Assembly: GCA_041694815.1 (NCBI GenBank)
Contig: JBGFSC010000049.1
Coordinates: forward strand, 32,001 to 96,000
Direction: 5' to 3'
DNA length: 64,000 nt
From: Elusimicrobiota bacterium
Lineage (GTDB): Bacteria; Elusimicrobiota; Elusimicrobia; UBA1565; JACRDR01
The notes under the pieces were generated by a model. That model was given only the letters and a program-made list of their open reading frames with translations. It made no database searches and was not told the DNA's origin. Positions 48,555 to 63,999 of the stretch are shown here, one piece after another; positions within the stretch are counted from its first letter, which is position 1; every line of letters starts with the position of its first letter. A program made the translations under genes and the position numbers.

Positions 48555-51500
48555 ATGGCGATGCGTTTGGACAGTTCCTACGAACGCGAGCTGGGCGGCC
48601 CCGGCCTCGCGCGCGCCTCGCTGCGCCGGCCTATTACCGTTTTCGTGCTCGTTCTGGCGTTGGTGCTGGGCGCCGCAGTTTCGTTGCGTCGAATGCCGCG
48701 GGACATACTCCCGAGCCTGGGCACTCCCGTCCTCTACGTCGCCCAGCCGTATGGAGGGATGAGCCCCGCGCAGATGGAGGGATTTCTCACCTACTACTAC
48801 GAATATCACTTCCTATACGTCACCGGCATCGAGCATGTCGAATCCAAATCGATCCAGGGCGTGGCTCTCATCAAGCTGGAGTTCCATCCCGGCACCGATA
48901 TGGCCCAAGCGTTGGCCGAAACGATCAACTACGCCAACCGCGCCAGGGCTTTTATGCCTCCCGGGACCGTTCCTCCGTTCATCATGCGCTTCGACGCCGG
49001 CAGCGTGCCGGTAGGGAATCTGGTGCTCGCCAGTCCGTCGCGGACGGTCGGCCAACTGCAGGACTTAGCGCTCAACCGCGTGCGTCCTTTATTCGCGACG
49101 CTGCCGGGGGTCTCGGCGCCGCCGCCTTTCGGCGCGAGCGCCCGGGCGATCGTCGTGCGGCTCGACCCGGAGAAGCTGCGCCGCTTCCACGTCTCGCCGG
49201 ACCGGGTGGCGGAGGCGGTGGCCGCCGCGAACGTAATAACCCCGGCCGGCAATTTGCGCATCGGCGACCGTTATCCCTCGATCCCGAGCAACTCCGTGGT
49301 GCGCGACATCCGCGAACTGGAAAACGTGCCTCTCCGGCTGGGCACCTCACCCACCGTTTTTGTGCGGGACGTCGGCTCGGTCGCGGACGCGACGGATATC
49401 CCCACCGGGTTCGCGCTCGTCAACGGCAAGCGCACGGTCTATATCCCCGTGACGAAGCGCTCGGACGCCTCGACCCTTTCGGTGGTGGACTCGGTGCGGG
49501 CCAACATGGAGAAGTTCAGGTCCGTGCTGCCCGAGGACGTCTCGATCGATTACGAGTTCGACCAGTCCGGCTACGTGCGTCGGGCGATCCGCTCGCTGCT
49601 CACTGAGGGCGCGCTCGGGGCGGTATTGGCGGGGCTCATGATTCTCTTGTTCCTGGGCGACGCCCGCAGCTCCGCTATCGTGGCGCTGACGATCCCCTTG
49701 GCGGTGCTCGCGGCCGCCGTCGGACTGAACCTCGCCGGGCAGACGATCAACGTGATGACGCTCGGAGGTCTCGCTCTTGCGGTCGGCATCTTGGTGGACG
49801 AGGCAACCGTGACCATCGAGAATATACACGCCCACCGAGCGGCAGGGGCGTCGTTGGGCCAGGCCGCGCTGGCGGCAACGGAGGAAACGTCCATGCCCCG
49901 GCTTCTCGCGATGCTCGCGATCCTCGCCGTCTTCCTGCCGACCTTCGCTATGACGGGAGCCGCGAAGGCCCTCTTCGCGCCGCTGTCGCTGGCGGTCGGA
50001 TTCGCGATGCTGGCCTCCTATCTGCTTTCTAGCACCCTGGTCCCCGTGCTAGCCGCAGCGACCTTGGGAGCGGCGGCCCCGCATGCGGGGCCGCTCGACC
50101 GATCACTCGCCGCCTGGCGCTCGCGCTATGGCTGCGCGCTGGAACGGTTTATTCCGCGCCGCAGAGCGCTGCTCGCCGGCTATCTGGCGGGAGCGACGGC
50201 GGTCCTGGCCCTGGCCGGATCGAACCTGGGCCGCGAAATCTTTCCCGCGGCGGATTTCGACCAGTTCCAGATCCGGCTCCGCGCCCCGACGGGCACCGCG
50301 ATCGAGGAGACCGAACGCCTCGCGCGGCGTTCGCTCGAGGCGATCGATAAGGAGTCCGGAGGAGTGCGGGTCTCCGTCGGGTTCGTCGGCGTGCAGCCTC
50401 CGAGCTTTCCGATTAATTCGATCCACCTATGGACCGCCGGCCCGGAGGAAGCGGTATTCCAGGTCGCACTCCTCCGGCCGCCGGCGGACGGAATCCAGGC
50501 TTTCAAGCAGCGCCTGCGGGAGCGGCTCGCGCGCGAGCTTCCCGATCTTGCGGTGTCTTTCGAGGCCTCGGACGTCATCGGCCGGGTCATGAGCCAGGGC
50601 GCGCCCGCGCCGATCGAGGTGGCGGTGACCGGACCGGATTTTGCGGCCGCTCTAACGTTCGCCCGCGCGGCGCGCGAACGGCTGGCGCGCATCCAGGCGC
50701 TGCGCGACGTGAGGCTTTCCCCCGCCGTGGACTACCCGTCGATGGCCGTCGAGATCGACCGCGTCCAGGCGGGCCTCTCCGGCCTTACCGCGGCGAAGGT
50801 CGGCAGCGCCCTGACGGCCGCCACTTCGTCGAGCCGTTACGGCACGCCCGTTTACTGGGCCGATCCTAGAAGCGGCATCGCCTATCAGGTGCAGGTCGAG
50901 CTCCAGCGAGACAAGCTCGCCTCGGCGGATCGCCTGGCCTCGCTGCCGGTCTCCGTCAATGGCGGCTCGGTGCCGCTAGGACGCTTCGCGAAAATCGTGT
51001 CCACGACGACGGTCGCGGAATACGCCCGCTACAATATGCAGCGCATGGCGACGGTCGCCGCGAACATCCATGGCCAGGATCTTGGTCGCGCCGCCGCGCA
51101 GGTACGCGCGGCTCTCAAAGAACTCGAGACCCAGCGCCCGAAAGGCATCGGGATCGCGCTGCGCGGCCAGGTGAAGCCGATGGAGCAGATGTTCGACGGT
51201 CTCAAGAACGGCCTCCTTTTGACGATTGTCGCGCTGTTTTTGCTTCTGACGGCTAACTTCCAGTCTCCGCGGCTCGCAATCGTCGTGCTGACCCCCGTGC
51301 CGGCGGCTTTGGGCGGGGCTGCGACGGTGCTTTGGGCCACCGGAACCACGCTCAACGCCCAATCCTTCATGGGATCGATCATGGCGGTGGGCATCGCGAT
51401 CGCCAACTCGATCCTCCTGGTTAGCTTCGCCGAGCGCGCGCGGCTCGAGGGACTGCATGGCGCCGCGGCGATCCTCGACGCGGCCCAGGGGCGCCTGCGC

Positions 51501-51731
51501 CCGATTCTTATGACGAGCGGCGCGATGATCGCCGGCATGCTGCCGATGGCGCTAGGCCTGGGCGAAAGCGGAAGCCAGACGGCGCCGTTGGGCCGAGCCG
51601 TCGTCGGGGGACTCGGGGCGGCCACCCTCGCGACGCTGCTCGTGCTGCCCGTAGCCTATGCCGCCCTCAGGCGCGATCCCGCGCCCCGGCCCGTGGAGCA
51701 AGACCCCGACACCGTCGCGACCGTCGGATGA
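48555..51731 (+). CDS. RND efflux transporter permease subunit (AcrB/CusA superfamily)
   Basis: 1058 aa; GILVDEATVTIENI, ANSILLV, RLRPILMT. Confidence 0.92.
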   Translation: MAMRLDSSYERELGGPGLARASLRRPITVFVLVLALVLGAAVSLRRMPRDILPSLGTPVLYVAQPYGGMSPAQMEGFLTYYYEYHFLYVTGIEHVESKSIQGVALIKLEFHPGTDMAQALAETINYANRARAFMPPGTVPPFIMRFDAGSVPVGNLVLASPSRTVGQLQDLALNRVRPLFATLPGVSAPPPFGASARAIVVRLDPEKLRRFHVSPDRVAEAVAAANVITPAGNLRIGDRYPSIPSNSVVRDIRELENVPLRLGTSPTVFVRDVGSVADATDIPTGFALVNGKRTVYIPVTKRSDASTLSVVDSVRANMEKFRSVLPEDVSIDYEFDQSGYVRRAIRSLLTEGALGAVLAGLMILLFLGDARSSAIVALTIPLAVLAAAVGLNLAGQTINVMTLGGLALAVGILVDEATVTIENIHAHRAAGASLGQAALAATEETSMPRLLAMLAILAVFLPTFAMTGAAKALFAPLSLAVGFAMLASYLLSSTLVPVLAAATLGAAAPHAGPLDRSLAAWRSRYGCALERFIPRRRALLAGYLAGATAVLALAGSNLGREIFPAADFDQFQIRLRAPTGTAIEETERLARRSLEAIDKESGGVRVSVGFVGVQPPSFPINSIHLWTAGPEEAVFQVALLRPPADGIQAFKQRLRERLARELPDLAVSFEASDVIGRVMSQGAPAPIEVAVTGPDFAAALTFARAARERLARIQALRDVRLSPAVDYPSMAVEIDRVQAGLSGLTAAKVGSALTAATSSSRYGTPVYWADPRSGIAYQVQVELQRDKLASADRLASLPVSVNGGSVPLGRFAKIVSTTTVAEYARYNMQRMATVAANIHGQDLGRAAAQVRAALKELETQRPKGIGIALRGQVKPMEQMFDGLKNGLLLTIVALFLLLTANFQSPRLAIVVLTPVPAALGGAATVLWATGTTLNAQSFMGSIMAVGIAIANSILLVSFAERARLEGLHGAAAILDAAQGRLRPILMTSGAMIAGMLPMALGLGESGSQTAPLGRAVVGGLGAATLATLLVLPVAYAALRRDPAPRPVEQDPDTVATVG

Positions 51732-52969
51732 GGGGCGCCGCCCTCCTCCTTTTCGTCGCCGCCTCAGCGAGCGCCTCGGATCTGTCTCTCCTGGATGCCC
51801 TGCGGCGCGCCGAAGCCGCGAGCCCGGATATCCGCGCGGCCATAGCGCGCGAGGAACAGGCGCGTTCCGCCGAATCCGCGCGTCAGGCCGCCCTCTATCC
51901 AGCGCTCGAGCTGCACGCGATCCACAGCGGAGGTTTCATCGGCTCCAACGGCGCGCTATGGCTGGCCGGCTTGCCGGGCTCTCCTTTTCGCACGGGCCCC
52001 ACGGCCGCGCTGGTCGGCCGCCTCGATCTCTTTGACGCTCGCAATATCCGCGGCGTCACCGTCTCCTCCCGGCAATTGCGGGCCGCTCAGGCGCGCACGG
52101 CCCTGGTCCGCTATCGCGTCGATCTGGCGGCCGCGAACGCGTTCCTCGACTGCGCTCGTCAAAGGGGAGCGCGGGAACTCTGGATCGAGCTCGCCGAAGA
52201 GATGCGGGAGGTCTCGGCGGCGGTGCAACGCCTGGTGCGCGCCGGCCAACACAGCCCCGTCGAGCGCCTGCTGGTCGAAGATCAGGTTTTAGACGCGGAG
52301 GCCTCGGCCGCCATATTCGGGGTCCGCTACGAGGGAGCGCGGCGCCGGTTGGCGGCGCTTATCGGCGCGGGCGCGGATGAATTTTCCTCTCCTCCGGCAT
52401 GGTCCTTGTCCGAGGCGGACGCCGCCATGACGCCGGGAAACAATCCCTTGGAGGACGTGGCCGAGGCGGAGCTGGCCGCCGCGGAGGCCGGCGTGCTGGA
52501 ACGGCGCGCCTTCCGCTTCCCCCGCCTGACCGCCGTCGGCAGCGTCGGCGCCATGGAAGGCGCCCGGCTGGTGGAGAGGAAAAATTATTCCGGAGGGCTG
52601 GGCATTGTCTTCCCGCTCTTCGAAGGTTTTCGCCAGTCGGCGGAGATCGAACGGGCGCAACGATTTACCGAGGAACGACGACAGGAGCGCGCCTCGGTGC
52701 GGCTGATGATCGATCTCGAGCATTCCCGTTGGGACGAGCAATTGGAGACTTCTCGCGTCCGTCTGGCCGCTTTGCAACGACAGCTCTCTCAAGCGAGGGA
52801 GGCCTTGGTGCTCGCCAAACGCCGGTACCTATCCTTTCAAGGCCCTCTCGTGGACGTGCGGGAAGCCCTGCGAAACCTCGCGCGCATCCGCAGTCAGCAA
52901 AACGAGGCGTCGGCCGACCTGGTGCTGGCGGCGGCCGCCAATCAACTGCTACTCGGCGGCGTTCCTTAA
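51728..52969 (+). CDS. TolC family outer membrane protein
   Basis: Signal peptide, LYPALEL, FPLFEG; ATGA-coupled to the RND gene. Confidence 0.8.
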   Translation: MRGAALLLFVAASASASDLSLLDALRRAEAASPDIRAAIAREEQARSAESARQAALYPALELHAIHSGGFIGSNGALWLAGLPGSPFRTGPTAALVGRLDLFDARNIRGVTVSSRQLRAAQARTALVRYRVDLAAANAFLDCARQRGARELWIELAEEMREVSAAVQRLVRAGQHSPVERLLVEDQVLDAEASAAIFGVRYEGARRRLAALIGAGADEFSSPPAWSLSEADAAMTPGNNPLEDVAEAELAAAEAGVLERRAFRFPRLTAVGSVGAMEGARLVERKNYSGGLGIVFPLFEGFRQSAEIERAQRFTEERRQERASVRLMIDLEHSRWDEQLETSRVRLAALQRQLSQAREALVLAKRRYLSFQGPLVDVREALRNLARIRSQQNEASADLVLAAAANQLLLGGVP

Positions 52970-53057
52970 AGCGGTTTTACTGCTCCTTCTTCCAGATTGT
53001 TAAGCCGTTGTTAACGGCCTCTTCCTATCCTCCGCACTATTTCAAACATTGTGGGGC

Positions 53058-54872
53058 ATGGGCGCGCGACCCGCGACGATTCTTTGCGCCGTTCTGCTGC
53101 CTTTATGCGCCGGCTCGGCCTCGGCCGTCAACGACCGATTCGGCGTCGCCCAAATATACCCCACCGTCTCCGGAGGGAAGGAATGGTTCTCCCAATGGAC
53201 CGGCGCAGCCCGCAGCTTCACGTGGGGACAGGACCCGCGGGACCCCTGGTTCAACGGCAAGGGCGACGCGACCTACTCCGTGGACGGACAAGGCCAGATG
53301 GCCGTCTCCGGGCCGGTGCCGCGCCTCTACATCTTCGACCCGGCGCTGCAGAAGAGCTGGCGCAACGTGGAGATGACGGTCTACGCCAAGCGCGTCTCCG
53401 ATAGCGGCACCCCTTGGGGCGGCGTGGTCGGCGTGGCGCGTACCAATCACGGCGTCGTAGGCGGATCCGAGACCTCCAATCGCTGCGACTCCAGGGGCAA
53501 CGGGGCGCGCTTCCGTTACGACGGGCATATCGACTTCGAAAAGGAGACCAGCCACCCCAATTCCGTCCCTATCTTAAATAAGACCCAGTGGCCGGGCGGG
53601 CTTCCTTACAACCAATGGATCGGCTACAAGCTCGTCGTCTACGACCTTCCCAACGGCAATGTGAAGCTCGAATCCTGGTACGACGGCTCCGACGGCGCGG
53701 GGGGAGGCAAATGGGTCAAGATCAACGAGTTCGAAGACAACGGATCGAATTTCGGCGTCGGTGGTGTTCCCTGCGCGTCCGGGATCAATCCAGCCCTGCG
53801 CCTGACCAACAGCGATCAGCGTCCTGGCTCTCCGACCGCCAAGCCCAACATCGCCGTCTATTGGAGAAGCGACAACGTCGGAAGCAACGGGCTTATCTAC
53901 AAGAAAATGAGCGTGCGGGAGATCGATCCTGCCGCGCCGCCTCCACCGCCTCCGCCTCCACCGCCTCCACCGCCGCCACCTCCCCCACCGCCGCCACCTC
54001 CCCCACCGCCACCTCCCCCGCCAGCCCCCACTCCCGATCCCGCTCCGGCGCCGAACCCGACTCCTGAACCAGGGCCGCAGCCGGATCCTCAGCCGCCACC
54101 CGCTCCTACCCCGCAACCCGAACCCGCGCCTCCGAGCGCTCCCGGCAGCGGCCAGGGAGCGGGCGATAGCAGCTCGGCGACGGCAGCTATCGGCCCCTCG
54201 GGAGGATCCGTGTCCATCGCCCCCCCGTCCGGACCGGCCGATCTGCAGGTGCCTCCGGGAGCCTTCGCCCAAGACGTAAACGTCACCCTGACATCTCCCT
54301 CCACGTTTCCGGCAGCGCCGATTCCCGCCTCCCCGGGTATCGGGCTCCGCGCCATGGGCGTGGGCCTCGACGTCTCGCTGTCGCCGCCGCTTCAGCCCTC
54401 CGCCGAGATTCCGATCCGCATCTCGTACCGGGACTCGGATGTCGCCGGGCTAGACGAGGCCAGGCTGATCATCGCGCGCTTCGACCCGTGGCGCAACGCC
54501 TGGATCCCGCTCGATTCGACTCCGGACCCGGCCTTAAACCGCGTGAGCGCCGCCACGAATCACTTCTCCCTTTTCCAGATCATGCAGGCCAGCCCCGCCT
54601 CCGGGGTCTCCAACGCGCGGGTGTTTCCCAACCCGCTGCTCCCGGCCCAGGGGCATGCGCGCATGACCTTCCTCTCGCTGCCGGCCGGCGCCCGATTGCG
54701 CGTCTATGACCTCAAGGGCGTGTTGATCAAGGATTTGTCGGCCGACGCCGCGGGCATGGCCTCCTGGGATGGGACCAACGAGGCCGGCGCGCTGGTGGCC
54801 AGCGGCGTGTATTTTGTCTACGCGCAAGGCGGCGGGGAGCGCCGCACCTTCAAGGTAGCCATACAACGATGA
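53058..54872 (+). CDS. secreted protein: beta-rich N-terminal domain, polyproline stalk, ZU5-like domain, T9SS-like C-terminal sorting domain
   Basis: Signal peptide; 29 consecutive Pro (53937-54023); TNHFSLF; ARVFPNP...RVYDLKG...[14 protein letters not shown]...RTFKVAIQR. Confidence 0.8.
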
Positions 54873-55816
54873 GGCGAATGTGGACCCTCGCGGCCCTGCT
54901 GCTATGCGCCCCCGCCGCCCGCGCCGGCAGCTTTTCCTCCTCCTCCCGCGGCATAGCTGCGGCGCGATTTTTAGAGCTGGATGTCGGCGCCCGCGCCGTC
55001 TCCCTCGGCGGCGCCTTCGCCGCCCTGGCGGACGACTCGAGCGCGCTGTACTGGAACCCGGCGGGCCTCACGGGCATCGAGAGACGCTCGGCGGGCTTCA
55101 TGCACGCCTCCCACATCGACTCGAGTATTTTCAATTATGGCGCCTACGGGCAGAAATTGGGCCGGCGCGGCGCTTTCGGCGCCGGCTTCCAGTATTTCTC
55201 CGCCGGACCCATCGCGCAAACCGACGCGGCGGGCGCCGATATCGGGACCTTCTCGCCGTACGACCTGGCGCTGTCGATCGGCTACGCGCATGCCTTAGGC
55301 GGTGGATTCACGGCGCCCTTGGCCGGCTTTTCCGTGGGCGGCAGCGGCAAGTTCATCCAATCGAAAATACTCCGGGGGGCCCAGACCGCGGCCGTGGACC
55401 TGGGCCTGCTGTCGCCCTGGTATTTCAACCAGCGCTTCCGGTGGGCCCTGACCGCCGTCAACATGGGCGGGAAGCTGAAGTTCGATCAGGTCTCCCACGA
55501 GCTTCCCTTCGCCTTGAGGGCGGCCGGCGCCTTGCGGATCGACGAGCATTGGAGCGCCTCCGTAGACGCCGTCTTTCCGAAATTTGACCGGCCTTTCGCG
55601 GCCGTCGGCGTGGAATACCGGCTAGCGCCCATCGGGCCTTGGACCCTGGCCGCCCGTGGGGGATTCAGCTCCCAGACCATCGGCGGCATCGATGGATTCA
55701 GCGGGATTTCGATGGGCCTGGGTTTCCGCTACCGCGGGTATGGGATCGATTATGCGTTCTTACCCTATGGAGGGGTGGGGCAGACGCATAGGATATCTCT
55801 TAACTATAACTTCTGA
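54869..55816 (+). CDS. PorV/PorQ (UPF0164)-like outer membrane beta-barrel
   Basis: [24 protein letters not shown], ends [10 protein letters not shown]. Confidence 0.82.
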
Positions 55817-55995
55817 ACGGCGACTTATACGCGCCTCGGGCGCGTGACTCGTCGCGCTTGACGTTCGCGCGGTGCCAGGGATTGACTTTCGCCTAGGCGA
55901 AAGTCAATCCCTGGCACCATCTTCGCGAATATTCCGCGCTCGGCGCGGTCGTCTGCGCCGAGCCCACGCGCTTAAAGCGCGTAAAAATTGCCGTT
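55816..55995. repeat. intergenic modular repeat, long form copy 2, with the perfect 48-bp palindrome (55871-55918) and imperfect terminal inverted repeats
   Basis: Ends aacggcgacttatacgcgc ... gcgcgtaaaaattgccgtt; core near-identical to 796-909. Confidence 0.9.
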
Positions 55996-56023
55996 TACCT
56001 CGAAGCCGCGGCAAAAAATCCAT

Positions 56024-57493
56024 TCAACGAACCACCGCAAAGCTCCCGCTACGCCGCCTCCCTTGCGTATCCGAGATCAGGTACAGGTAAATCCCCGACG
56101 CCACCCTCTGCCCGGCGTCGTCCGTCAAATCCCAATGGCCGACCCCGGCCGGGGCGCTGATCGTCCTCACCCATCGGCCCGACATCGTGTAAATGCGCAC
56201 CTCGCTGCCGGGCGTCAGCTGGTCCACCGTGAGGGCGATCCCCGCGTGGGTGTCGGCGCGCCACGGGTTTGGAAACACCCTCGCGCCGCCCAGGTCGGCC
56301 GCCAGTGACGGATGCGGGTGAGGCGACGGGGCGATCGCGAAGGACAGAATGTTCGAGCGCCCGGAAGGGTCGAATACGCTGACGCGGGCCGTCCCGCTCG
56401 AGACGATGTCGGAGGCGGGAATGCCCGCCCGTATCGTCGAAGAGCTCGCAAAATGGGTCGGCCGCGGCTCACCGTTGAACTCCACCCGCGAATCGGTCGA
56501 AAAGCCCTGCCCGAATACGGTCAAGACGAATTCGGGCCCTCCCGCCGCCACCGAGCGGGGCTCCAGAAAGGTAAGCAGCGGGACGCTTTTTCCCGGCCCC
56601 TCAGAGGCTAAAGGCGGCTCGACGGCCGGCACGGAGGCCGTCTCGCTAGAACGCAACGGGCGGCAGCCCTCCCCGATGCCGTCGGCGCAATACTCATGCG
56701 TCGGCATCGGGGGCGTCGTTGGCGGTTGCGTTGACAGGACCACCTCGGGCGGCGGGGCGGCCTCCCCGGCGATCACCTGGGCGACGGTCCGCACCAGCGT
56801 CCCCCGCGGCTCGCGCTCCTTGAGCCAATCCAGGAACCCCGCCAAGGTGCCGGTGCTCAGGGCGAAGGGATCGCAACTCTCACAGAGCCGGTGAAGCACG
56901 AGAGGGACCCATCCGCCTCCAGCCTGCTCCGCGTCCAGGACGAGACGCTGCAACTCCCCGAGCGTCGTGTCAGGCCTGGCCGATCTGGGTGTGCGCACGA
57001 CGTACGGGTTCTCCGGCGGCACGGTCTCAGCCTTGGGGCAACTCGGGCAGGCCAGGCTCCCGACGACCCGAGCGCTCGAGTAGCCGCATTCGCGGACCGT
57101 CGCTTCGGCGGCCTCGCTCGAGGCGCCGAAGGGATAGGCGAAGGAGACGGCATCGAAGCCCCAGGAGCGTAGCTGCGAACGGTCCTCGCAGATCTCGCGC
57201 CGCCGCTCAGCCTCGGAAAGACGCGCCACGTTGAGGTGGTGCAAGGTATGCCCGGCGATCTCATGGCCCGCGGCCGAGATCGCGCGCAGATCGGAGAGAG
57301 TAAGGTAGAGCCCGCTCGCGCCGATGCGCGCGCTGTTGACGTAAAAGGTGCCTTTAAAGCCGCGTTCCTCCAGCATCCGGGCTCCCAGGAGATGATCGGC
57401 CGTCCCGTCGTCGAAGGTGAGGCTCACCAAGGTGCGGGCCGCGGCGGGCGAGGCGAACGCGAAAATAGCCACCAGGCAAAGCGCTTCCTTCAT
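56024..57493 (-). CDS. polysaccharide deacetylase + IPT/TIG domain + T9SS-like C-terminal sorting domain
   Basis: VSLTFDDG, HEIAGHTLHH, FAYPFG; IPT-like FVLTVFGQGF; ARVFPNPWR...WDLTDDAG..VASGIY...FAVVR. Confidence 0.85.
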   Translation of the reverse strand: MKEALCLVAIFAFASPAAARTLVSLTFDDGTADHLLGARMLEERGFKGTFYVNSARIGASGLYLTLSDLRAISAAGHEIAGHTLHHLNVARLSEAERRREICEDRSQLRSWGFDAVSFAYPFGASSEAAEATVRECGYSSARVVGSLACPSCPKAETVPPENPYVVRTPRSARPDTTLGELQRLVLDAEQAGGGWVPLVLHRLCESCDPFALSTGTLAGFLDWLKEREPRGTLVRTVAQVIAGEAAPPPEVVLSTQPPTTPPMPTHEYCADGIGEGCRPLRSSETASVPAVEPPLASEGPGKSVPLLTFLEPRSVAAGGPEFVLTVFGQGFSTDSRVEFNGEPRPTHFASSSTIRAGIPASDIVSSGTARVSVFDPSGRSNILSFAIAPSPHPHPSLAADLGGARVFPNPWRADTHAGIALTVDQLTPGSEVRIYTMSGRWVRTISAPAGVGHWDLTDDAGQRVASGIYLYLISDTQGRRRSGSFAVVR

Positions 57494-58401
57494 CGCTTCT
57501 GGCCCCCGCTTCCAAAGGAGAACAAGATCGAAAAGTATTGCGTCTGGCCGAGACGCCCCAAGGGCACCCATGCGTAGTCGAAGCTCTGGCCGTAGAGGTT
57601 GAGCCCGAGCCCGGCCGTGACACCGGAGAGCCCCGAGAGCTCGCGGGTCGGGTCCGTCCTATAGCCGGCGCGCAAAAAGACAAATGAAAAGGGCGACCAT
57701 TCGGCGCCGAGGCGGCCCGCCGGCAATCCCCCGCGGTCGTAAAAGCCGTCGGCGGCCAGGCGGACTCCGGCGGTGGGGTTCAAAAGTACCCCGACGCGGT
57801 AGCTGCGCGGCAGCTCGTCTCGCGCGTGGAGAAAGCGTATCCTCGAGCCGACGTTGGCGATCGCCGCCGCGACTTGCACCCGGGCGCTGATTCGGTATAG
57901 AGCCCCCGCGTCGCCGGCCGCAGCACCCGCGGACGCGTCGCCGATGCGGGCGTCGATCCACTTGACAGTCGCGCCGAAGGAAAGGGCCTTGCCGGCGCGG
58001 CGCCCATACGCGATGGAATAGGCCCCGTAATAGGAGGAAAAGCTTCCGATCTCCGCTCCGGAGGCGTCGCGCAAGGCCATCGGCTCGGGACGCAATAATT
58101 GCACCGAGCCTCCCAGCCCGCCTCCCCGGCGGAGGGGATGGACATAACTGATGAACTCGTAGCCGACCGATTCGAGATAACTCAGGTGCATGGCGGCCAA
58201 CTGCCGCCCGGGCAGCAGCCCCAGGCCCGCCGGGTTCCAGACCGGGGCGTAGGCGTCGGCCGCCAAGGCGCTGTAAGCCCCGCCGAGGGCCGCCGGGCGG
58301 CCGCCGACCGGTATGTCCAGGAAGGAGGCGGCTTCGACGCCCGAGGCTTCGGCCCGGACCGCTAGTACGGCGAGCAGCAAGGAAAGCTTCGCGCCGCTCA
58401 T
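57490..58401 (-). CDS. PorV/PorQ (UPF0164)-like outer membrane beta-barrel
   Basis: FLDIPVGGRPAALGGAY, WNPAGL, DYAWVPLGRLGQTQYFS. Confidence 0.82.
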   Translation of the reverse strand: MSGAKLSLLLAVLAVRAEASGVEAASFLDIPVGGRPAALGGAYSALAADAYAPVWNPAGLGLLPGRQLAAMHLSYLESVGYEFISYVHPLRRGGGLGGSVQLLRPEPMALRDASGAEIGSFSSYYGAYSIAYGRRAGKALSFGATVKWIDARIGDASAGAAAGDAGALYRISARVQVAAAIANVGSRIRFLHARDELPRSYRVGVLLNPTAGVRLAADGFYDRGGLPAGRLGAEWSPFSFVFLRAGYRTDPTRELSGLSGVTAGLGLNLYGQSFDYAWVPLGRLGQTQYFSILFSFGSGGQKR

Positions 58402-58437
58402 ACCGGCAAGCACTATAGCAGCGAGCGCGGGCTCGCC

Positions 58438-58485
58438 GAATAATCAGCGTGTAACCGTTCCTTGGCGGGGCGTCGTAATCCGCTT
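58438..58485. promoter_or_regulatory. conserved upstream element of PorV-like cassette (copy 1)
   Basis: GAATAATC-n3-GTGTAAC-n15-CGTCGTA, 37 nt from the cassette start codon. Confidence 0.6.
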
Positions 58486-58688
58486 CAGATCAAATAAAAT
58501 CGGAGCAGCCCCGTTACGAGCGGCTCTACGGAGAGGACGAACAGCAGGGCCTTCTTGGGCTGCCTCCGGATGAATTTCCAATGCCCCTTCATGACCCGAT
58601 AAACGAATCGAGTGGAACGGACCAGGACCTCAAGCCCCTCCTTCTTCTTGGGGCGCTCTAAGTCATGGTAGTCGTCGACCATCCTCAT
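58485..58688 (-). CDS. small hypothetical protein with C-terminal hydrophobic helix
   Basis: ATGA-coupled to the upstream small ORF. Confidence 0.45.
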   Translation of the reverse strand: MRMVDDYHDLERPKKKEGLEVLVRSTRFVYRVMKGHWKFIRRQPKKALLFVLSVEPLVTGLLRFYLI

Positions 58689-58927
58689 CGGTAGACGGGC
58701 TTCCACCCTTGGGAGGCCAGAACCTTCAGGTAATTGCGCATGTAGGGCTCGACGTATTCGTCGGAAACGCTGCCGGCGATCTCGGCCACGACAATGTCGT
58801 GCTTCTGCTTATCCCAATGCGCGCAGGGCTCCGGCGGGTTCTTCAGAGGCGACCTGGAAGAGGACAGAAAGACCTCCTTGAGCGTCAAATTCCGGAACTC
58901 GTAGATCTTGACGGCGTCCGAGCCCAT
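58685..58927 (-). CDS. small hypothetical protein
   Basis: 80 aa, coding-like codons, CATACT box 7 nt upstream. Confidence 0.6.
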   Translation of the reverse strand: MGSDAVKIYEFRNLTLKEVFLSSSRSPLKNPPEPCAHWDKQKHDIVVAEIAGSVSDEYVEPYMRNYLKVLASQGWKPVYR

Positions 58928-59031
58928 GGCGTCCAGTATGAGGAAAACGCGCGGGAGGGTCCACTCAAATCCTGATCAAATTTTTGTGACCTCATGAAAC
59001 GGCCGGGGAAGATGACATACAATAATCCGCC

Positions 59032-59703
59032 ATGAGAGCGCTCGCGCTGATACCGGCGTTGCTGTTTTCCTCGGTAGCGGCAGCCGCCGAATTCAGGTCC
59101 ACCGAGGATATGCAGTACTGGACTCCGACCTTCATCCACCTCCCGCGGCGCGGACGCCTCTCCGCTCTGCTCGAGATCAATCCGCGCGTCCGCGGCGATC
59201 TCGGCCGCCTCAACCATCTCTTGATACGGCCGTGGCTGGGCTGGTCCGTTTCCAAGGGCGTCGTCGCGCACGCGGGATACGCGTGGGTACGCAATGACTT
59301 GGGCGCCGTATCCCAGGAGCACAGGATCTGGCAACAGGGAACTTTCCTTAAGACCGTCATGGGCTCGACGCTGCTCGGCCGCGCGCGGCTGGAAGAGCGC
59401 TGGCTGGAAGGAGCGCGCGGCCTCTCTTGGCGCGGGCGCATCATGGGCCGCGTGGAACGGCCGATCGGCAACGGTCCTTGGTTCCTAGTAGGTTCCGACG
59501 AATTATTCCTCCATCTTCCATCGGCCCCGGGAGGCCCGGCCGAGGGATTCGATCAAAACCGCCTGTTTTTGGGCGTCGGCAGGATGCGCAGCGGCCGGCC
59601 TAAGGCGGAGTTCGGCTATCAGCATTGGAGGCTCAACCGCCCAAGCGGACCCGACAGCATATTCCACGTGCTGGTGTTGACGACGCATTGGACGATCGAT
59701 TAG
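59032..59703 (+). CDS. DUF2490-like outer membrane beta-barrel protein
   Basis: EHRIWQQ, RARLEERW, SDELF, FDQNRLFLGVG. Confidence 0.8.
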   Translation: MRALALIPALLFSSVAAAAEFRSTEDMQYWTPTFIHLPRRGRLSALLEINPRVRGDLGRLNHLLIRPWLGWSVSKGVVAHAGYAWVRNDLGAVSQEHRIWQQGTFLKTVMGSTLLGRARLEERWLEGARGLSWRGRIMGRVERPIGNGPWFLVGSDELFLHLPSAPGGPAEGFDQNRLFLGVGRMRSGRPKAEFGYQHWRLNRPSGPDSIFHVLVLTTHWTID

Positions 59704-60608
59704 AATCTCGCGGCGAAGGAAAATCGGTGCACACGGCCGAGCTCGCCGAAAGGCGTGATCGAATAATCCAGGCTGTAGCCGTATCCCACCAAGCCGAATC
59801 CCGCGGCAAGGCCTTGGATGCCAGCGATTCCCGTGCCTCCGGGCAAGGCCGCCGCCGAGGCGTATCCGGCCCGGAACATGAATCCTCCCACCAAGGCGTA
59901 TTCGGTCCCGAGATTAATTTCCGACGCCTTCGCGTACGGGCGATACCGGTAATCCAACCCGAAGATCAGACCGCCGGCCACTTTATATCCCAGGCCCGTT
60001 GTCCACGCCAGCGGCATGGGAAAACCCTGGTCTAGAAATTTCATCCCAGGGCCGATGTTTTGAACGGCGATCCCAAGTTGCACGTCGCCCGGCCCCCACC
60101 GTCCGGCCCGATAGAGCCCGCCGAGATCGATGCCGTAGCCGTTGGCCGAGGCCTCCGCGATGCGGCTAGTCACATACCGAATGCCGGTCCCCATCCTGAA
60201 ACGCTCGGAGAGCCGAAGGCCATAGGCGAGGTCGATACTGGTGTCATGAGCGACGAAGCTGCCGTTCGGCCGGCCCATGGAATCCCGCCCCTCGATCGCC
60301 CCCTGCCCCAGTCTCCGCAAGCCGGCCGCCAGGGTACCGACTCGAGTCGGCTGGGCGTAGCCGAGGAACTGATAGCGTGTGCTCCCTAAGGTCTCGGCGT
60401 GCATGAACCCAAATTCGCGCGAGGCGATCGCCGATAGCCCCGCCGGGTTCCACGCGACGGCGCTGACATCGTCGGCCACCGCCGTGTAGGCGCCCCCCAT
60501 GCCGAGCGCCCGCGCCCCTACCCCGATCTTAAGAAAGGTGGCCGACTCCTGCGACGAGGCAAAAACGGGCAGCAACAGGAGCGCGAGGACCAGCGCGAAG
60601 GCCGTCAT
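59700..60608 (-). CDS. PorV/PorQ (UPF0164)-like outer membrane beta-barrel
   Basis: FLKIGVGARALGMGGAY, WNPAGL, ends VHRFSFAARF. Confidence 0.85.
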   Translation of the reverse strand: MTAFALVLALLLLPVFASSQESATFLKIGVGARALGMGGAYTAVADDVSAVAWNPAGLSAIASREFGFMHAETLGSTRYQFLGYAQPTRVGTLAAGLRRLGQGAIEGRDSMGRPNGSFVAHDTSIDLAYGLRLSERFRMGTGIRYVTSRIAEASANGYGIDLGGLYRAGRWGPGDVQLGIAVQNIGPGMKFLDQGFPMPLAWTTGLGYKVAGGLIFGLDYRYRPYAKASEINLGTEYALVGGFMFRAGYASAAALPGGTGIAGIQGLAAGFGLVGYGYSLDYSITPFGELGRVHRFSFAARF

Positions 60609-61039
60609 TTGATTACCGCCACCTTTCCAGTCTTGCTGATCACGCCTTCCCCGGGCTTTTTGATCGTCACGGCATATATGTAGATCCCGGAGCCGACCCC
60701 ACTGACGTCCCACTCATAGTCGTAGGTGTATTGCGGCCCTTTCCCGTTGCCGTCGTCGAACACCCGAGGCGGCGAAAATTCGGCGCTATGCACGCGATGC
60801 CCCGCCACGTCGTAGATGTTGAGCAGCGCGGTTTCCGCGAGGCCGGTCTGCAGGCGTATGGTGACCGCCTGCCCTCGCCGAGACGGATTCGGGAAAGCGT
60901 AGAGCTGGCGCAAGGAGAGGGCGGGATCGACGAAGAAGCCACCCCCTGGAGCGAGGGCGGAAGGTGACTCTCTGAGCTCACGAGCGAAGGCGGGAGATGC
61001 CGTCGCGAGCGTCATGCACAGCGCCCAACCCAGCCTCAT
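60605..61039 (-). CDS. stand-alone T9SS-like C-terminal sorting domain protein
   Basis: Signal peptide, then LYAFPNP...NIYDVAG...WDVSGVGSGIY...KTGKVAVIK. Confidence 0.8.
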   Translation of the reverse strand: MRLGWALCMTLATASPAFARELRESPSALAPGGGFFVDPALSLRQLYAFPNPSRRGQAVTIRLQTGLAETALLNIYDVAGHRVHSAEFSPPRVFDDGNGKGPQYTYDYEWDVSGVGSGIYIYAVTIKKPGEGVISKTGKVAVIK

Positions 61040-62680: not shown

Positions 62681-63742
62681 TTAGGCGGCCGGCTGGTTTA
62701 GCGTGCGTTCTAACCGACCGACCGATGCCGTGATCTCATCGAACGAAGGGGTCGCTCCGAAGATCATTCCGGACATGCGCGAATAGTCTTCTTCCAAGCC
62801 CTTGCGCATCGCCGGTGTCGGCAGCAAAGCAAAGGTTCCCGGCTTCGCGCTGGAGAGATCAAAGTCTGGCCGATTGAAGAACATTCGGGCATGGCGGACG
62901 CATTCCGAGGCCAGCGGTAGATTGCCCGCGATCGCCTCGGCGTTCTTTCCGGCAAGCAAGCAATGCACGTCGTAATAGTGGCGGGAGACTCGCTGCCCCT
63001 CCTGCCGCAACTCGCCGCGAATCTCGAACCACCGGCGCAGGCCGTGAAGGATGACCACCTTATCCCAAAATGTGCGCGCCGGCTCGATCGTCCTGACGCC
63101 TTTGATGCCGAGCTGCTTCCCCGGCGCGTCAGCCGCAACGAAAGGCGATATAGTCGCCGCCACGTTCGGGTCCAGTGCCGACTTGGCGCCGGATTCGATC
63201 TTGATGGAGGGATGCACATAGGAGTCACCCGTCGTTACGGCGCTCGGGTATCGCACGAGTAGCGTTTGTCCATCTGGATCGGAATCATCGAGCAGCACGC
63301 CTGTGTCACCAGCGCCAATGCCGGCGGCCTTCATCGTCTCGGCGAGAACGCCTTGGAGTTGAGGCTGGAGAATATCCTTGATGTAATGTTGGCAGCCGTC
63401 CTTGATGGCGTCAAGCCAGGCCTGGCGTTTCTTGCCGGTCAGCTTTCCGAGTTCTTCGGGGGAAGATGATAGGCCCAGATCGGCCCGGAACACGGTAATA
63501 TCAATGTCCTCTGAAAAACGCTGGATCAGCCCGAACGCCTTGGAAAGGGAAGTCCCGCCCTTGAAGAGCAATCGGGGGCCGCCGGGAGCTAATTGATGAA
63601 ACAGCGCATCGAGAGTCCAGCACGCCCAAAAATCCTTTTCTACATTCTGTTCCGTGGTGCCGATCCGCCTGGCCGTCGCCGCAAAGAGCCCGCGCCGCTC
63701 GTCTTTGGACGCCGCAAGGATACCCGCATAGCCGGCATTCAT
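62681..63742 (-). CDS. nucleotidyltransferase AbiEii/AbiGii family toxin
   Basis: VEKDFW, LFKGGTSLSKAFGLIQRFSEDID, RTFWDK, SRHYYD. Confidence 0.92.
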   Translation of the reverse strand: MNAGYAGILAASKDERRGLFAATARRIGTTEQNVEKDFWACWTLDALFHQLAPGGPRLLFKGGTSLSKAFGLIQRFSEDIDITVFRADLGLSSSPEELGKLTGKKRQAWLDAIKDGCQHYIKDILQPQLQGVLAETMKAAGIGAGDTGVLLDDSDPDGQTLLVRYPSAVTTGDSYVHPSIKIESGAKSALDPNVAATISPFVAADAPGKQLGIKGVRTIEPARTFWDKVVILHGLRRWFEIRGELRQEGQRVSRHYYDVHCLLAGKNAEAIAGNLPLASECVRHARMFFNRPDFDLSSAKPGTFALLPTPAMRKGLEEDYSRMSGMIFGATPSFDEITASVGRLERTLNQPAA

Positions 63743-63999
63743 CGACGAACCCGCAACATGCGCTTGGCGGCGCGCGGCTGGCGGTCTTCTTGCCGCGTCG
63801 ACGCTCCTAAATCTAAGAGTTCGCGAACGACCGATTGCATCCAGCTCGGGAGAGTAGGAAGACCCGTGAGCAAGTCGCCGCGGAGTTCGGCGCCGTGCGA
63901 TGGATCGCCGATATTACGCCGAAGCCGTTTAATGATCGCCGTACGCTCGGGACCCAAGATATCCTGGAGCCAATAGAGCGCCTGGACGATGCGCATTGC
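63739..63999 (-). CDS. putative AbiEi-like/DUF6088-type antitoxin, C-terminal part (5' end outside the window)
   Basis: IVQALYWL...LPSWMQSVVREL; ATGA-coupled to the AbiEii gene. Confidence 0.7.
   Translation of the reverse strand, partial: AMRIVQALYWLQDILGPERTAIIKRLRRNIGDPSHGAELRGDLLTGLPTLPSWMQSVVRELLDLGASTRQEDRQPRAAKRMLRVRR

Follow-up and report, generated by a model that had tools for sequence, protein, structure and literature searches.

Three gene pairs in a 64,000-nucleotide stretch of an Elusimicrobiota genome (GenBank assembly GCA_041694815.1, contig JBGFSC010000049.1, positions 32,001 to 96,000; this whole stretch is called the window below) each join an outer-membrane barrel of the PorV/PorQ family to a protein with a signal-peptide-like N-terminus and a C-terminal domain (CTD) resembling a type 9 secretion system (T9SS) sorting domain of type A. 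Here, we report that such pairing is a genome-wide rule and not a local oddity, that it extends through the order, that barrels and CTDs diverge in a correlated fashion, that the barrel adopts a PorV-like predicted fold, and that a homologue of the SprA/Sov translocon is encoded elsewhere in the genome. We propose, at a probability of roughly 0.55, that each pair encodes a cargo for secretion together with a PorV/PorQ-family carrier-anchor of its own, the cargo exiting through a SprA-like pore and staying displayed on its barrel.

Pairing in the window and across the genome

Profile searches place the three window barrels, numbered 1 to 3 together with their partner cargos (Table 1), in the family that the first-pass annotation of the window had recognized when it described three PorV/UPF0164-like genes: all exceed the NF033709 cut-off of 90 bits, and the Pfam PorV and/or UPF0164 cut-offs are passed too. 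Each of them gains more from the PorQ model (95–103 bits) than from the PorV model (37–76 bits), with 103.1 and 72.6 bits for barrel 1, 94.9 and 37.2 bits for barrel 2 (UPF0164, 37.7 bits), and 100.8 and 75.5 bits for barrel 3; none reaches the equivalog cut-offs of PorQ proper (NF033711, 220 bits) or PorV proper (NF033710, 250 bits). The common C-terminal domain that the annotation saw on the partners is a T9SS type-A-like CTD, matched by TIGR04183 (cut-off 23 bits) up to the last residue of every cargo, that of cargo 1 lying marginally under the cut-off at 22.7 bits. Pfam and NCBIfam profiles gave no CHU_C (type-B) match in the window cargos and no PorP/SprF match in the window barrels. Read directly from the sequence, all three junctions are ATGA overlaps between a barrel and one signal-peptide-like partner, as had been claimed: the ATG of barrels 1 and 3 overlaps the stop of the respective cargo, and the stop of barrel 2, which lies upstream, overlaps the ATG of cargo 2. 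The coordinates likewise bear out the gene order of cargo–barrel, barrel–cargo and cargo–barrel.

Behind a signal-peptide-like N-terminus (for each of the three cargos, a hydrophobic start judged by eye from the translation), cargo 1 carries an N-terminal domain whose family is unknown, then a Pro-rich linker that leads to another unknown domain and on to the type-A-like CTD; its last ~90 residues match the C-terminus of PorZ at 43 bits, and a TTG at 53049 could serve as start instead. The linker holds ~32 consecutive prolines inside a longer Pro/Ala/Thr-rich stretch (window ~53930-54150). In a phmmer search against the PDB, this linker was the only part of the protein to match anything; an Atlas search of the N-terminal domain returned uncharacterised clusters only, plus a weak polysaccharide-lyase lead. 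Cargo 2 continues from its N-terminus into a CE4 polysaccharide deacetylase (Polysacc_deac_1, 64.6 bits), an IPT/TIG (choice-of-anchor Z) domain (TIG, 27.1 bits; CoaZ repeat, 80 bits) and the CTD. Cargo 3 additionally scores 23.5 bits against Pfam PF18962, under the cut-off of 27.

The arrangement recurs throughout the genome, which comprises 2.77 Mb in 54 contigs and is estimated to be 97.8% complete. With the NCBIfam profile, 21 barrel genes are recovered, and with TIGR04183, 15 CTDs; custom barrel and CTD profiles, started from the window's three pairs and refined by iteration over the six-frame open reading frames (ORFs) of the genome, find 22 barrels and 20 C-terminal CTDs, the latter at 51–88 bits, with the next CTD matches (at most 21.6 bits) all being internal repeats. 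Nineteen of these 20 CTD genes are paired with a barrel, 14 in the order cargo then barrel, four in the order barrel then cargo and one with an intervening 554-aa ORF, and 18 of the 22 barrels have a CTD partner. Counting adjacency, as the annotation had suggested, we find 18 CTD genes directly abutting a barrel gene against 0.37 expected by chance for 22 barrels among ~2400 called genes (binomial P ~1e-29). By the annotation's own account, a complete canonical T9SS elsewhere would speak against it if adjacent pairs were not enriched; the enrichment is extreme. A 4-nt NTGA overlap is possible at 13 of the 18 pair junctions, compared with 494 of 2053 in a loose, generous genome baseline.

The cargos include giants with fibronectin type III (fn3), Kelch and beta-helix domains (3,522 and 13,779 aa), S8 and M4 peptidases, and an amidase-like protein. 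The largest is a single ORF (C38:58886-100225) that ends in a CTD and is followed ~300 nt further on by a gene for a barrel with a tetratricopeptide repeat (TPR) extension; CTD-ended ORFs of 12,044 and 14,374 aa are present in two relatives. The window's own contig holds a fourth pair beyond the end of the window (C54:105436-110357, equivalent to window 73436-78357), in which a TAATG overlap joins the stop of a 1221-aa fn3-rich CTD cargo to the start of the gene for a 418-aa barrel. On contigs C2, C41 and C50, three pairs have a CHU_C-like, type-B-like CTD alongside a barrel that matches PorP/SprF as well. Their barrels bear a C-terminal TPR extension, as do two others (Table 1), and the C2 barrel has a LysM domain in addition. 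In Porphyromonas gingivalis the barrel PorP binds a separate periplasmic protein, PorE, that has TPR and peptidoglycan-binding domains (PMC9143113). By analogy, the TPR extensions may be fused equivalents of the PorP–PorE pair.

Pairing in related genomes

All 21 genomes of the order contain PorV-family matches, 9–40 per genome, and counts in 61 sampled genomes of the phylum run from 0–5 in small genomes to at least 29 in larger ones. In four good relatives, a barrel adjoins 68 of 92 CTD matches, and 62 of 75 barrels have a partner; several of the unpaired cases are internal repeats or lie at contig ends. We also fetched related loci with barrel 3 as the sole query; these 80 most similar loci, a sample biased to the barrel-3 class, come mostly from metagenome-assembled genomes (MAGs) labelled Elusimicrobia or Elusimicrobiota, at identities of up to 56%. 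Here a CTD ends upstream of 73 of 88 barrels, at positions from 60 nt inside the barrel gene to 600 nt before it. The same upstream CTD is seen in loci labelled Ignavibacteria, Bacteroidetes, WOR-3, Calditrichaceae and others.

One locus from another phylum (L070) encodes a full PorU (464 bits with NF033707) directly upstream of a PorV-family barrel; a porU–porV gene arrangement is the usual one in Bacteroidota. In several genomes of the Fibrobacteres–Chlorobi–Bacteroidetes (FCB) group (loci L068, L073 and L082-L087, from MAGs labelled Bacteroidetes and Ignavibacteria), a conserved ~1190-aa CTD protein lies directly upstream of a PorV-family barrel; it belongs to no recognised family and is not PorU.

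CTD-only mini-proteins beside barrels, in open frames of 128–149 aa, recur in the four relatives (Table 1) and are like cargo 3 of the window; several of them are preceded by a second, larger CTD protein. PG1035 of P. gingivalis has been proposed as a cap for PorP (PMC9143113), and the CTD-only mini-proteins may, by analogy, play a similar cap-like role.

Table 1. Coordinates of the window pairs and of related features elsewhere. Plain coordinates are window positions, C-prefixed ones lie on contigs of the same genome and G-prefixed ones in relatives.
Feature	Location	Strand	Description
Cargo 1	53058..54872	+	604 aa; partner of barrel 1
CTD of cargo 1	54603..54869	+	74.7 bits with custom CTD hidden Markov model
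Barrel 1	54869..55816	+	315 aa; PorV/PorQ-family outer-membrane barrel; NF033709 167.6 bits
Cargo 2	56024..57493	-	489 aa; partner of barrel 2
CTD of cargo 2	56027-56296	-	TIGR04183 27.6 bits; PorZ C-terminus 49.7 bits
Barrel 2	57490..58401	-	303 aa; PorV/PorQ-family; NF033709 137.9 bits
Barrel 3	59700..60608	-	302 aa; PorV/PorQ-family; NF033709 172.8 bits
Cargo 3	60605..61039	-	144 aa; signal-peptide-like N-terminus and CTD, almost without passenger
CTD of cargo 3	60608-60916	-	TIGR04183 24.3 bits
Barrel with TPR extension	C2:2129-3850		~200-330 aa C-terminal extension
Barrel with TPR extension	C41:22172-24139		~200-330 aa C-terminal extension
Barrel with TPR extension	C50:10731-12683		~200-330 aa C-terminal extension
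Barrel with TPR extension	C19:30363-32246		~200-330 aa C-terminal extension
Barrel with TPR extension	C38:100534-102144		~200-330 aa C-terminal extension
CTD-only mini-protein	G011:C6:12055-12321		relative
CTD-only mini-protein	G006:C1:45956-46222		relative
CTD-only mini-protein	G009:C27:34345-34620		relative
CTD-only mini-protein	G016:C13:3166-3462		relative
CTD-only mini-protein	G016:C15:154385-154669		relative

Correlated divergence of barrels and CTDs

The first-pass annotation had proposed comparing the divergence of the barrels with that of the CTDs, and within the genome the two are correlated (Mantel r 0.656, a value reached in 0 of 10000 permutations). The nearest neighbour agrees for barrel and CTD in 12 of 18 pairs. 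The correlation persists when the type-B-like pairs are removed (r 0.52, 0 of 10000) and is of similar size among 40 pairs of the barrel-3 class, or class 3 (r 0.66, 0 of 2000). The barrel paralogues of the genome are just 26–34% identical to one another and therefore represent old lineages.

The association of particular CTDs with particular barrels is also visible across genomes. In 36 related loci, the CTD upstream of a barrel-3 homologue is 48–59% identical to that of cargo 3, and five further CTDs in this position show 33–39% identity; the CTDs of cargos 1 and 2 reach 22–37% against the CTD proteins of those 36 loci, over local alignments. Passenger similarity between nearest-neighbour pairs of the genome itself is absent or covers 96–174 aa only. 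The claim that each CTD cargo has its own barrel partner is thus supported from several sides, namely the 19 of 20 paired CTDs, the relatives, the correlated divergence, a class match in most related loci, and the predicted complex described below.

Predicted structures of barrel 3 and its partner

The AlphaFold2 model of barrel 3 has 14 strands and a predicted local distance difference test score (pLDDT) of 88.5. Its two best-ranked Foldseek matches are the PorV chains of the Flavobacterium johnsoniae translocon, 8gl6_F and 6h3i_F (TM-scores for the query, TMq, of 0.80 and 0.78); PorV stands ahead of FadL and TodX, and the fold family also includes TbuX. The cargo 3 CTD is modelled as a seven-stranded sandwich (pLDDT 88.2), whose fold matches are generic Ig-like sandwiches (E ~5e-4) in what proved a non-discriminating search; PorZ (5m11, 27% identity) and PorU (6za2_A, 23% identity) are among them.

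Modelling the cognate pair, one half of the cognate versus non-cognate check that the annotation had called for, gave a complex of barrel 3 (residues 20-302) and the cargo 3 CTD with a score of 0.91, compared with 0.00 for the best of three controls. This mark is reached by 116 of 157 solved complexes and by 2 of 215 mismatched pairs, counts that are rough here as our own alignments were used. Three runs agree in 100% of contacts, with a partner pLDDT of at least 79. The predicted contacts involve all seven outward loops, as assigned from the strand order of the barrel model, together with the N-terminal segment of the barrel; those of lowest error fall on motifs common to the type-A-like CTDs of this genome, including FPNP and the C-terminal strand. 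This result shows a likeness of the pair to known complexes, and it may partly reflect the predictor's memory of the solved PorV–CTD complex, 8GL6. In FadL, an N-terminal hatch fills the barrel lumen, and the analogy suggests that the N-terminal segment of barrel 3 may be a hatch of this kind.

A SprA homologue and the rest of the type 9 machinery

The window itself contains no SprA or PorKLMN gene. Elsewhere in the genome there is a single SprA/Sov homologue of 1829 aa (C19:8829-14318), which TIGR04189 matches at 142.5 bits (E 9e-42). When nine Elusimicrobiota SprA-like copies are combined into a profile and searched against the PDB, only SprA of F. johnsoniae is retrieved (6h3i_A, E 6e-34). 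SprA-like genes were found in 96 of the 101 genomes sampled from the phylum. The gene lies beside divergently transcribed lptG and lptF (C19:5669-14318), and three paralogues of the formylglycine-generating enzyme (FGE)-sulfatase family, partly matching GldK/GldJ, are found a few kb away. A 236-aa ORF upstream of the SprA-like gene has no counterpart in the short flanks of eight orthologous loci.

Other components were not recognised. In the genome, the only matches to the PorU profile NF033707 are CTD-like tails (model positions 955–1094) and no sortase domain, which gives no sign of CTD removal by PorU with attachment of the cargo to A-LPS. The GldK profile matched only in its sulfatase-modifying-factor-like half, in 11 paralogues. 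The GldL, GldM and GldN profiles matched nothing in the genome, a blank that says little because the GldM profile is equally silent, and so uninformative, in four non-Elusimicrobiota MAGs (some labelled Bacteroidetes or Ignavibacteria), in control genomes and in one relative.

These results do not support the idea of a self-sufficient two-gene system, which the annotation had put forward as a minimal arrangement organised differently from the T9SS, because a SprA homologue is present and because the barrel has a carrier-type fold. The stronger suggestion that the barrel by itself exports the partner is not supported either: a plugged 14-strand PorV/FadL fold is that of a carrier, not of a translocon.

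Proposed mechanism

From genes and models we infer the following course of events, in which physical binding, SprA dependence, CTD retention and specificity are the proposed elements. Judging from their N-termini, cargo and barrel would both be exported to the periplasm by Sec, in amounts that may be close to 1:1 if the ATGA overlap couples their translation. The barrel would insert in the outer membrane and, by analogy with PorV of F. johnsoniae, dock on the single SprA-like translocon. At the SprA-like pore, the extracellular loops of the barrel would bind the cargo CTD, a step modelled on known systems and consistent with the in silico complex of pair 3, and the cargo would exit the pore bound to its barrel. 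The CTD is probably kept, because no PorU-type sortase was found that could cleave it and recycle the carrier; the cargo would then be displayed on the barrel non-covalently, like PorZ on PorQ or type-B cargo on PorP/SprF. Each carrier would be consumed once per cargo molecule, and a single use of this kind would explain why there is one barrel gene per cargo, why translation would be coupled, and why CTD and barrel diverge jointly.

More tentatively, and with appreciable doubt, we envision a broader picture in which free-living Elusimicrobiota, beyond the Bacteroidota/FCB range, possess a stripped-down form of type 9 secretion, with a short SprA-like pore, a private single-use carrier-anchor per cargo, no sortase and perhaps no GldKLMN-type motor. 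The cognate pair, of which porU–porV, PorQ–PorZ and PorP/type-B pairs would be surviving traces, might then be the older design, and the shared, recycled PorV with its sortase a later economy.

Weighing the alternatives

Several observations weigh against the carrier-anchor reading. In the genome, no barrel adjoins the S8 peptidase on contig C28, itself a CTD protein, four barrels lack a CTD neighbour, and the barrel at C12:71081-72064 sits between two CTD genes, making the ratio not strictly 1:1. Among related loci, the CTD class equals the barrel class in 43 of 72 cases, most of the misses being near-ties or from distant phyla. One locus in a related MAG (L032, 989-12214) clusters two cargo–barrel pairs whose classes are interchanged. 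In the first, a p8-class CTD (57% identity) on a 1671-aa cargo precedes a p16-class barrel; in the second, ~5 kb downstream, a 364-aa cargo bears a p16-class CTD (55% identity) and precedes a p8-class barrel (60% identity). Either the genes were naturally rearranged here, or neighbours need not be matched partners. Correlated divergence is also expected from the plain inheritance of linked genes, whatever their function. Among 14 complete class-3 cargos, passengers are similar in 78 of 91 pairs, mostly in a module of ~100–250 aa adjoining the CTD, and the conserved unit may be larger than the CTD alone. As for the machinery, the SprA-like protein scores under the curated cut-off (142.5 vs 200 bits), has no Pfam match and drew a blank in a single-sequence PDB search, and the PorU negative comes from one profile in a genome of 97.8% estimated completeness. 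The passenger similarity in class 3 also weakens a variant that we had considered, in which passengers are freely swapped around a fixed CTD–barrel unit.

The swapped neighbours of L032, the barrel between two CTD genes and the CTD protein without a barrel count in favour of barrels that are interchangeable carriers, with pairing and coupling there only to supply one carrier per cargo molecule, without any cognate recognition. The predicted interface, with its lowest-error contacts on shared motifs, fits such an arrangement too, and in Bacteroidota one PorV is reported to serve all type-A CTDs (PMC12618676). We nevertheless consider interchangeability unlikely, since CTD and barrel distances correlate even inside one genome, where all copies have the same descent history, since the barrel paralogues have drifted so far apart in identity, and since barrel-3 homologues in the 36 loci adjoin CTDs resembling that of cargo 3 far more than those of cargos 1 and 2. 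Because the L032 pair is class-swapped, strict cognate specificity remains unproven; of the partner-specific system that the annotation envisaged, adjacency and co-divergence stand.

A different division of labour, in which the barrels would be shuttles only, has a protease removing the CTD, the cargo being released to the medium or to another anchor, and the barrel being recycled. Many Bacteroidota type-A substrates are indeed released after leaving PorV (PMC10202324, PMC10994853), and several of the cargos here are enzymes able to act in solution (the deacetylase, the S8 and M4 peptidases and the amidase-like domain). The profile search found no PorU catalytic domain in the genome, however; a recycled carrier would need neither one gene per cargo nor translational coupling, and the periplasmic TPR extensions on some barrels, in one case with LysM, suggest a fixed position at the cell wall. 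We regard the shuttle as improbable. Still smaller is the chance that a pair is autonomous, the barrel itself moving its partner across the outer membrane without SprA. The window without SprA or PorKLMN and the blank GldL, GldM and GldN profiles would suit that arrangement, but the SprA homologue in this genome and across the phylum does not, and a 14-strand PorV/FadL-type barrel with a putative hatch leaves cargos that reach 13,779 aa without a plausible channel. Least probable of all, in our view, is that the barrels are not protein carriers but FadL-like uptake channels for small hydrophobic products of a neighbouring surface enzyme. FadL, TodX and TbuX do belong to the same fold family, and barrels 1 and 3 have weak Toluene_X matches; against this, the best fold and family matches are PorV/PorQ and not FadL, the partners are as diverse as fn3/Kelch/beta-helix giants, peptidases and a CTD-only protein without any enzyme, and it is the CTD, not the enzyme domain, that varies along with the barrel.

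Comparison with known systems

The carrier-anchor arrangement that we favour has a close parallel in the PorQ–PorZ and PorV–PorU pairs of the P. gingivalis attachment complex, where a PorV-family barrel holds a partner at the surface through an uncleaved CTD, PorZ keeping its CTD in order to bind PorQ (PMC10202324). In line with PorQ–PorZ, the window barrels favour the PorQ model over the PorV model, and the PorZ C-terminus finds a match in cargos 1 and 2, at their CTDs (43 and 50 bits). The partners here are enzymes and adhesin-like proteins, however, and not PorZ or PorU; no PorU was found in the genome by its profile, unlike in P. gingivalis, and the PorQ and PorV equivalog cut-offs are unmet. 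Whereas P. gingivalis has two such special machine components among ~30 cargos on a shared PorV, 19 of 20 cargos are paired here.

Carriers that adjoin their cargo genes are familiar from type-B systems, such as SprB–SprF of F. johnsoniae and PG1035–PorP–PorE of P. gingivalis, and the window pairs have the same layout. Type-B cargo is anchored, through its intact CTD, on cognate and often adjacent PorP/SprF-like barrels, and the carrier is required for the secretion of its own cargo (PMC9143113; PMC12618676). Unlike in those systems, the window CTDs are type-A-like and the barrels belong to the PorV/PorQ family, CHU_C together with PorP/SprF being seen in the C2, C41 and C50 pairs. For the type-A class of Bacteroidota, one shared PorV has been reported (PMC12618676), whereas this genome has 22 barrels and 20 CTD proteins.

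The SprA–PorV translocon of F. johnsoniae (6H3I, 8GL6) offers a third comparison. The 14-strand PorV-like barrel (TMq 0.78–0.80) and the SprA homologue are shared with it, and the CTD is predicted to sit on the extracellular loops of the barrel as in the solved complex, in which the carrier loops bind the CTD inside SprA (PMC10994853). SprA here is ~600 aa shorter than that of F. johnsoniae (1829 vs 2403 aa) and falls short of the family cut-off; many carriers take the place of one, motor, hub and sortase components were not recognised, and the host belongs to Elusimicrobiota, not Bacteroidota.

Neighbouring genes in the window

Directly upstream of pair 1 (48555-52969) lie genes for an RND efflux permease of the AcrB family (594 bits) and then a TolC-like outer-membrane factor, overlapping by 4 nt. 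Between pairs 2 and 3, a DUF2490 protein (59032-59703, + strand, 129 bits) is convergent with barrel 3, the gene ends overlapping by 4 nt. At the far end of the window (62681-63999, - strand), an AbiEii-type nucleotidyltransferase toxin (128 bits) has its start overlapped by an ORF that extends past the end of the window and may be its antitoxin.

Implications

The protein families discussed here are already known, as is the principle of a private adjoining carrier for type-B CTDs, the one substrate class for which such carriers have been described. What appears to be new is the extension of this principle to type-A-like CTDs and PorV/PorQ-family barrels, its span over almost the whole CTD secretome, and a host phylum beyond the range usually given for the T9SS, which published abstracts call specific to Bacteroidetes or to the FCB superphylum. 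A literature search with little coverage of subscription journals returned no description of type 9 components in Elusimicrobia and none of one-to-one pairs of type-A CTDs and PorV-family barrels.

This lineage offers a natural test of the carrier's role, that is, of transport alone against transport together with anchoring. It bears on the need for energy and sortase components in release from the translocon, and on the evolution of the shared-carrier system. Provided that their SprA dependence and specificity were worked out, compact two-gene modules of tail and barrel would likewise be candidate tools for surface display.

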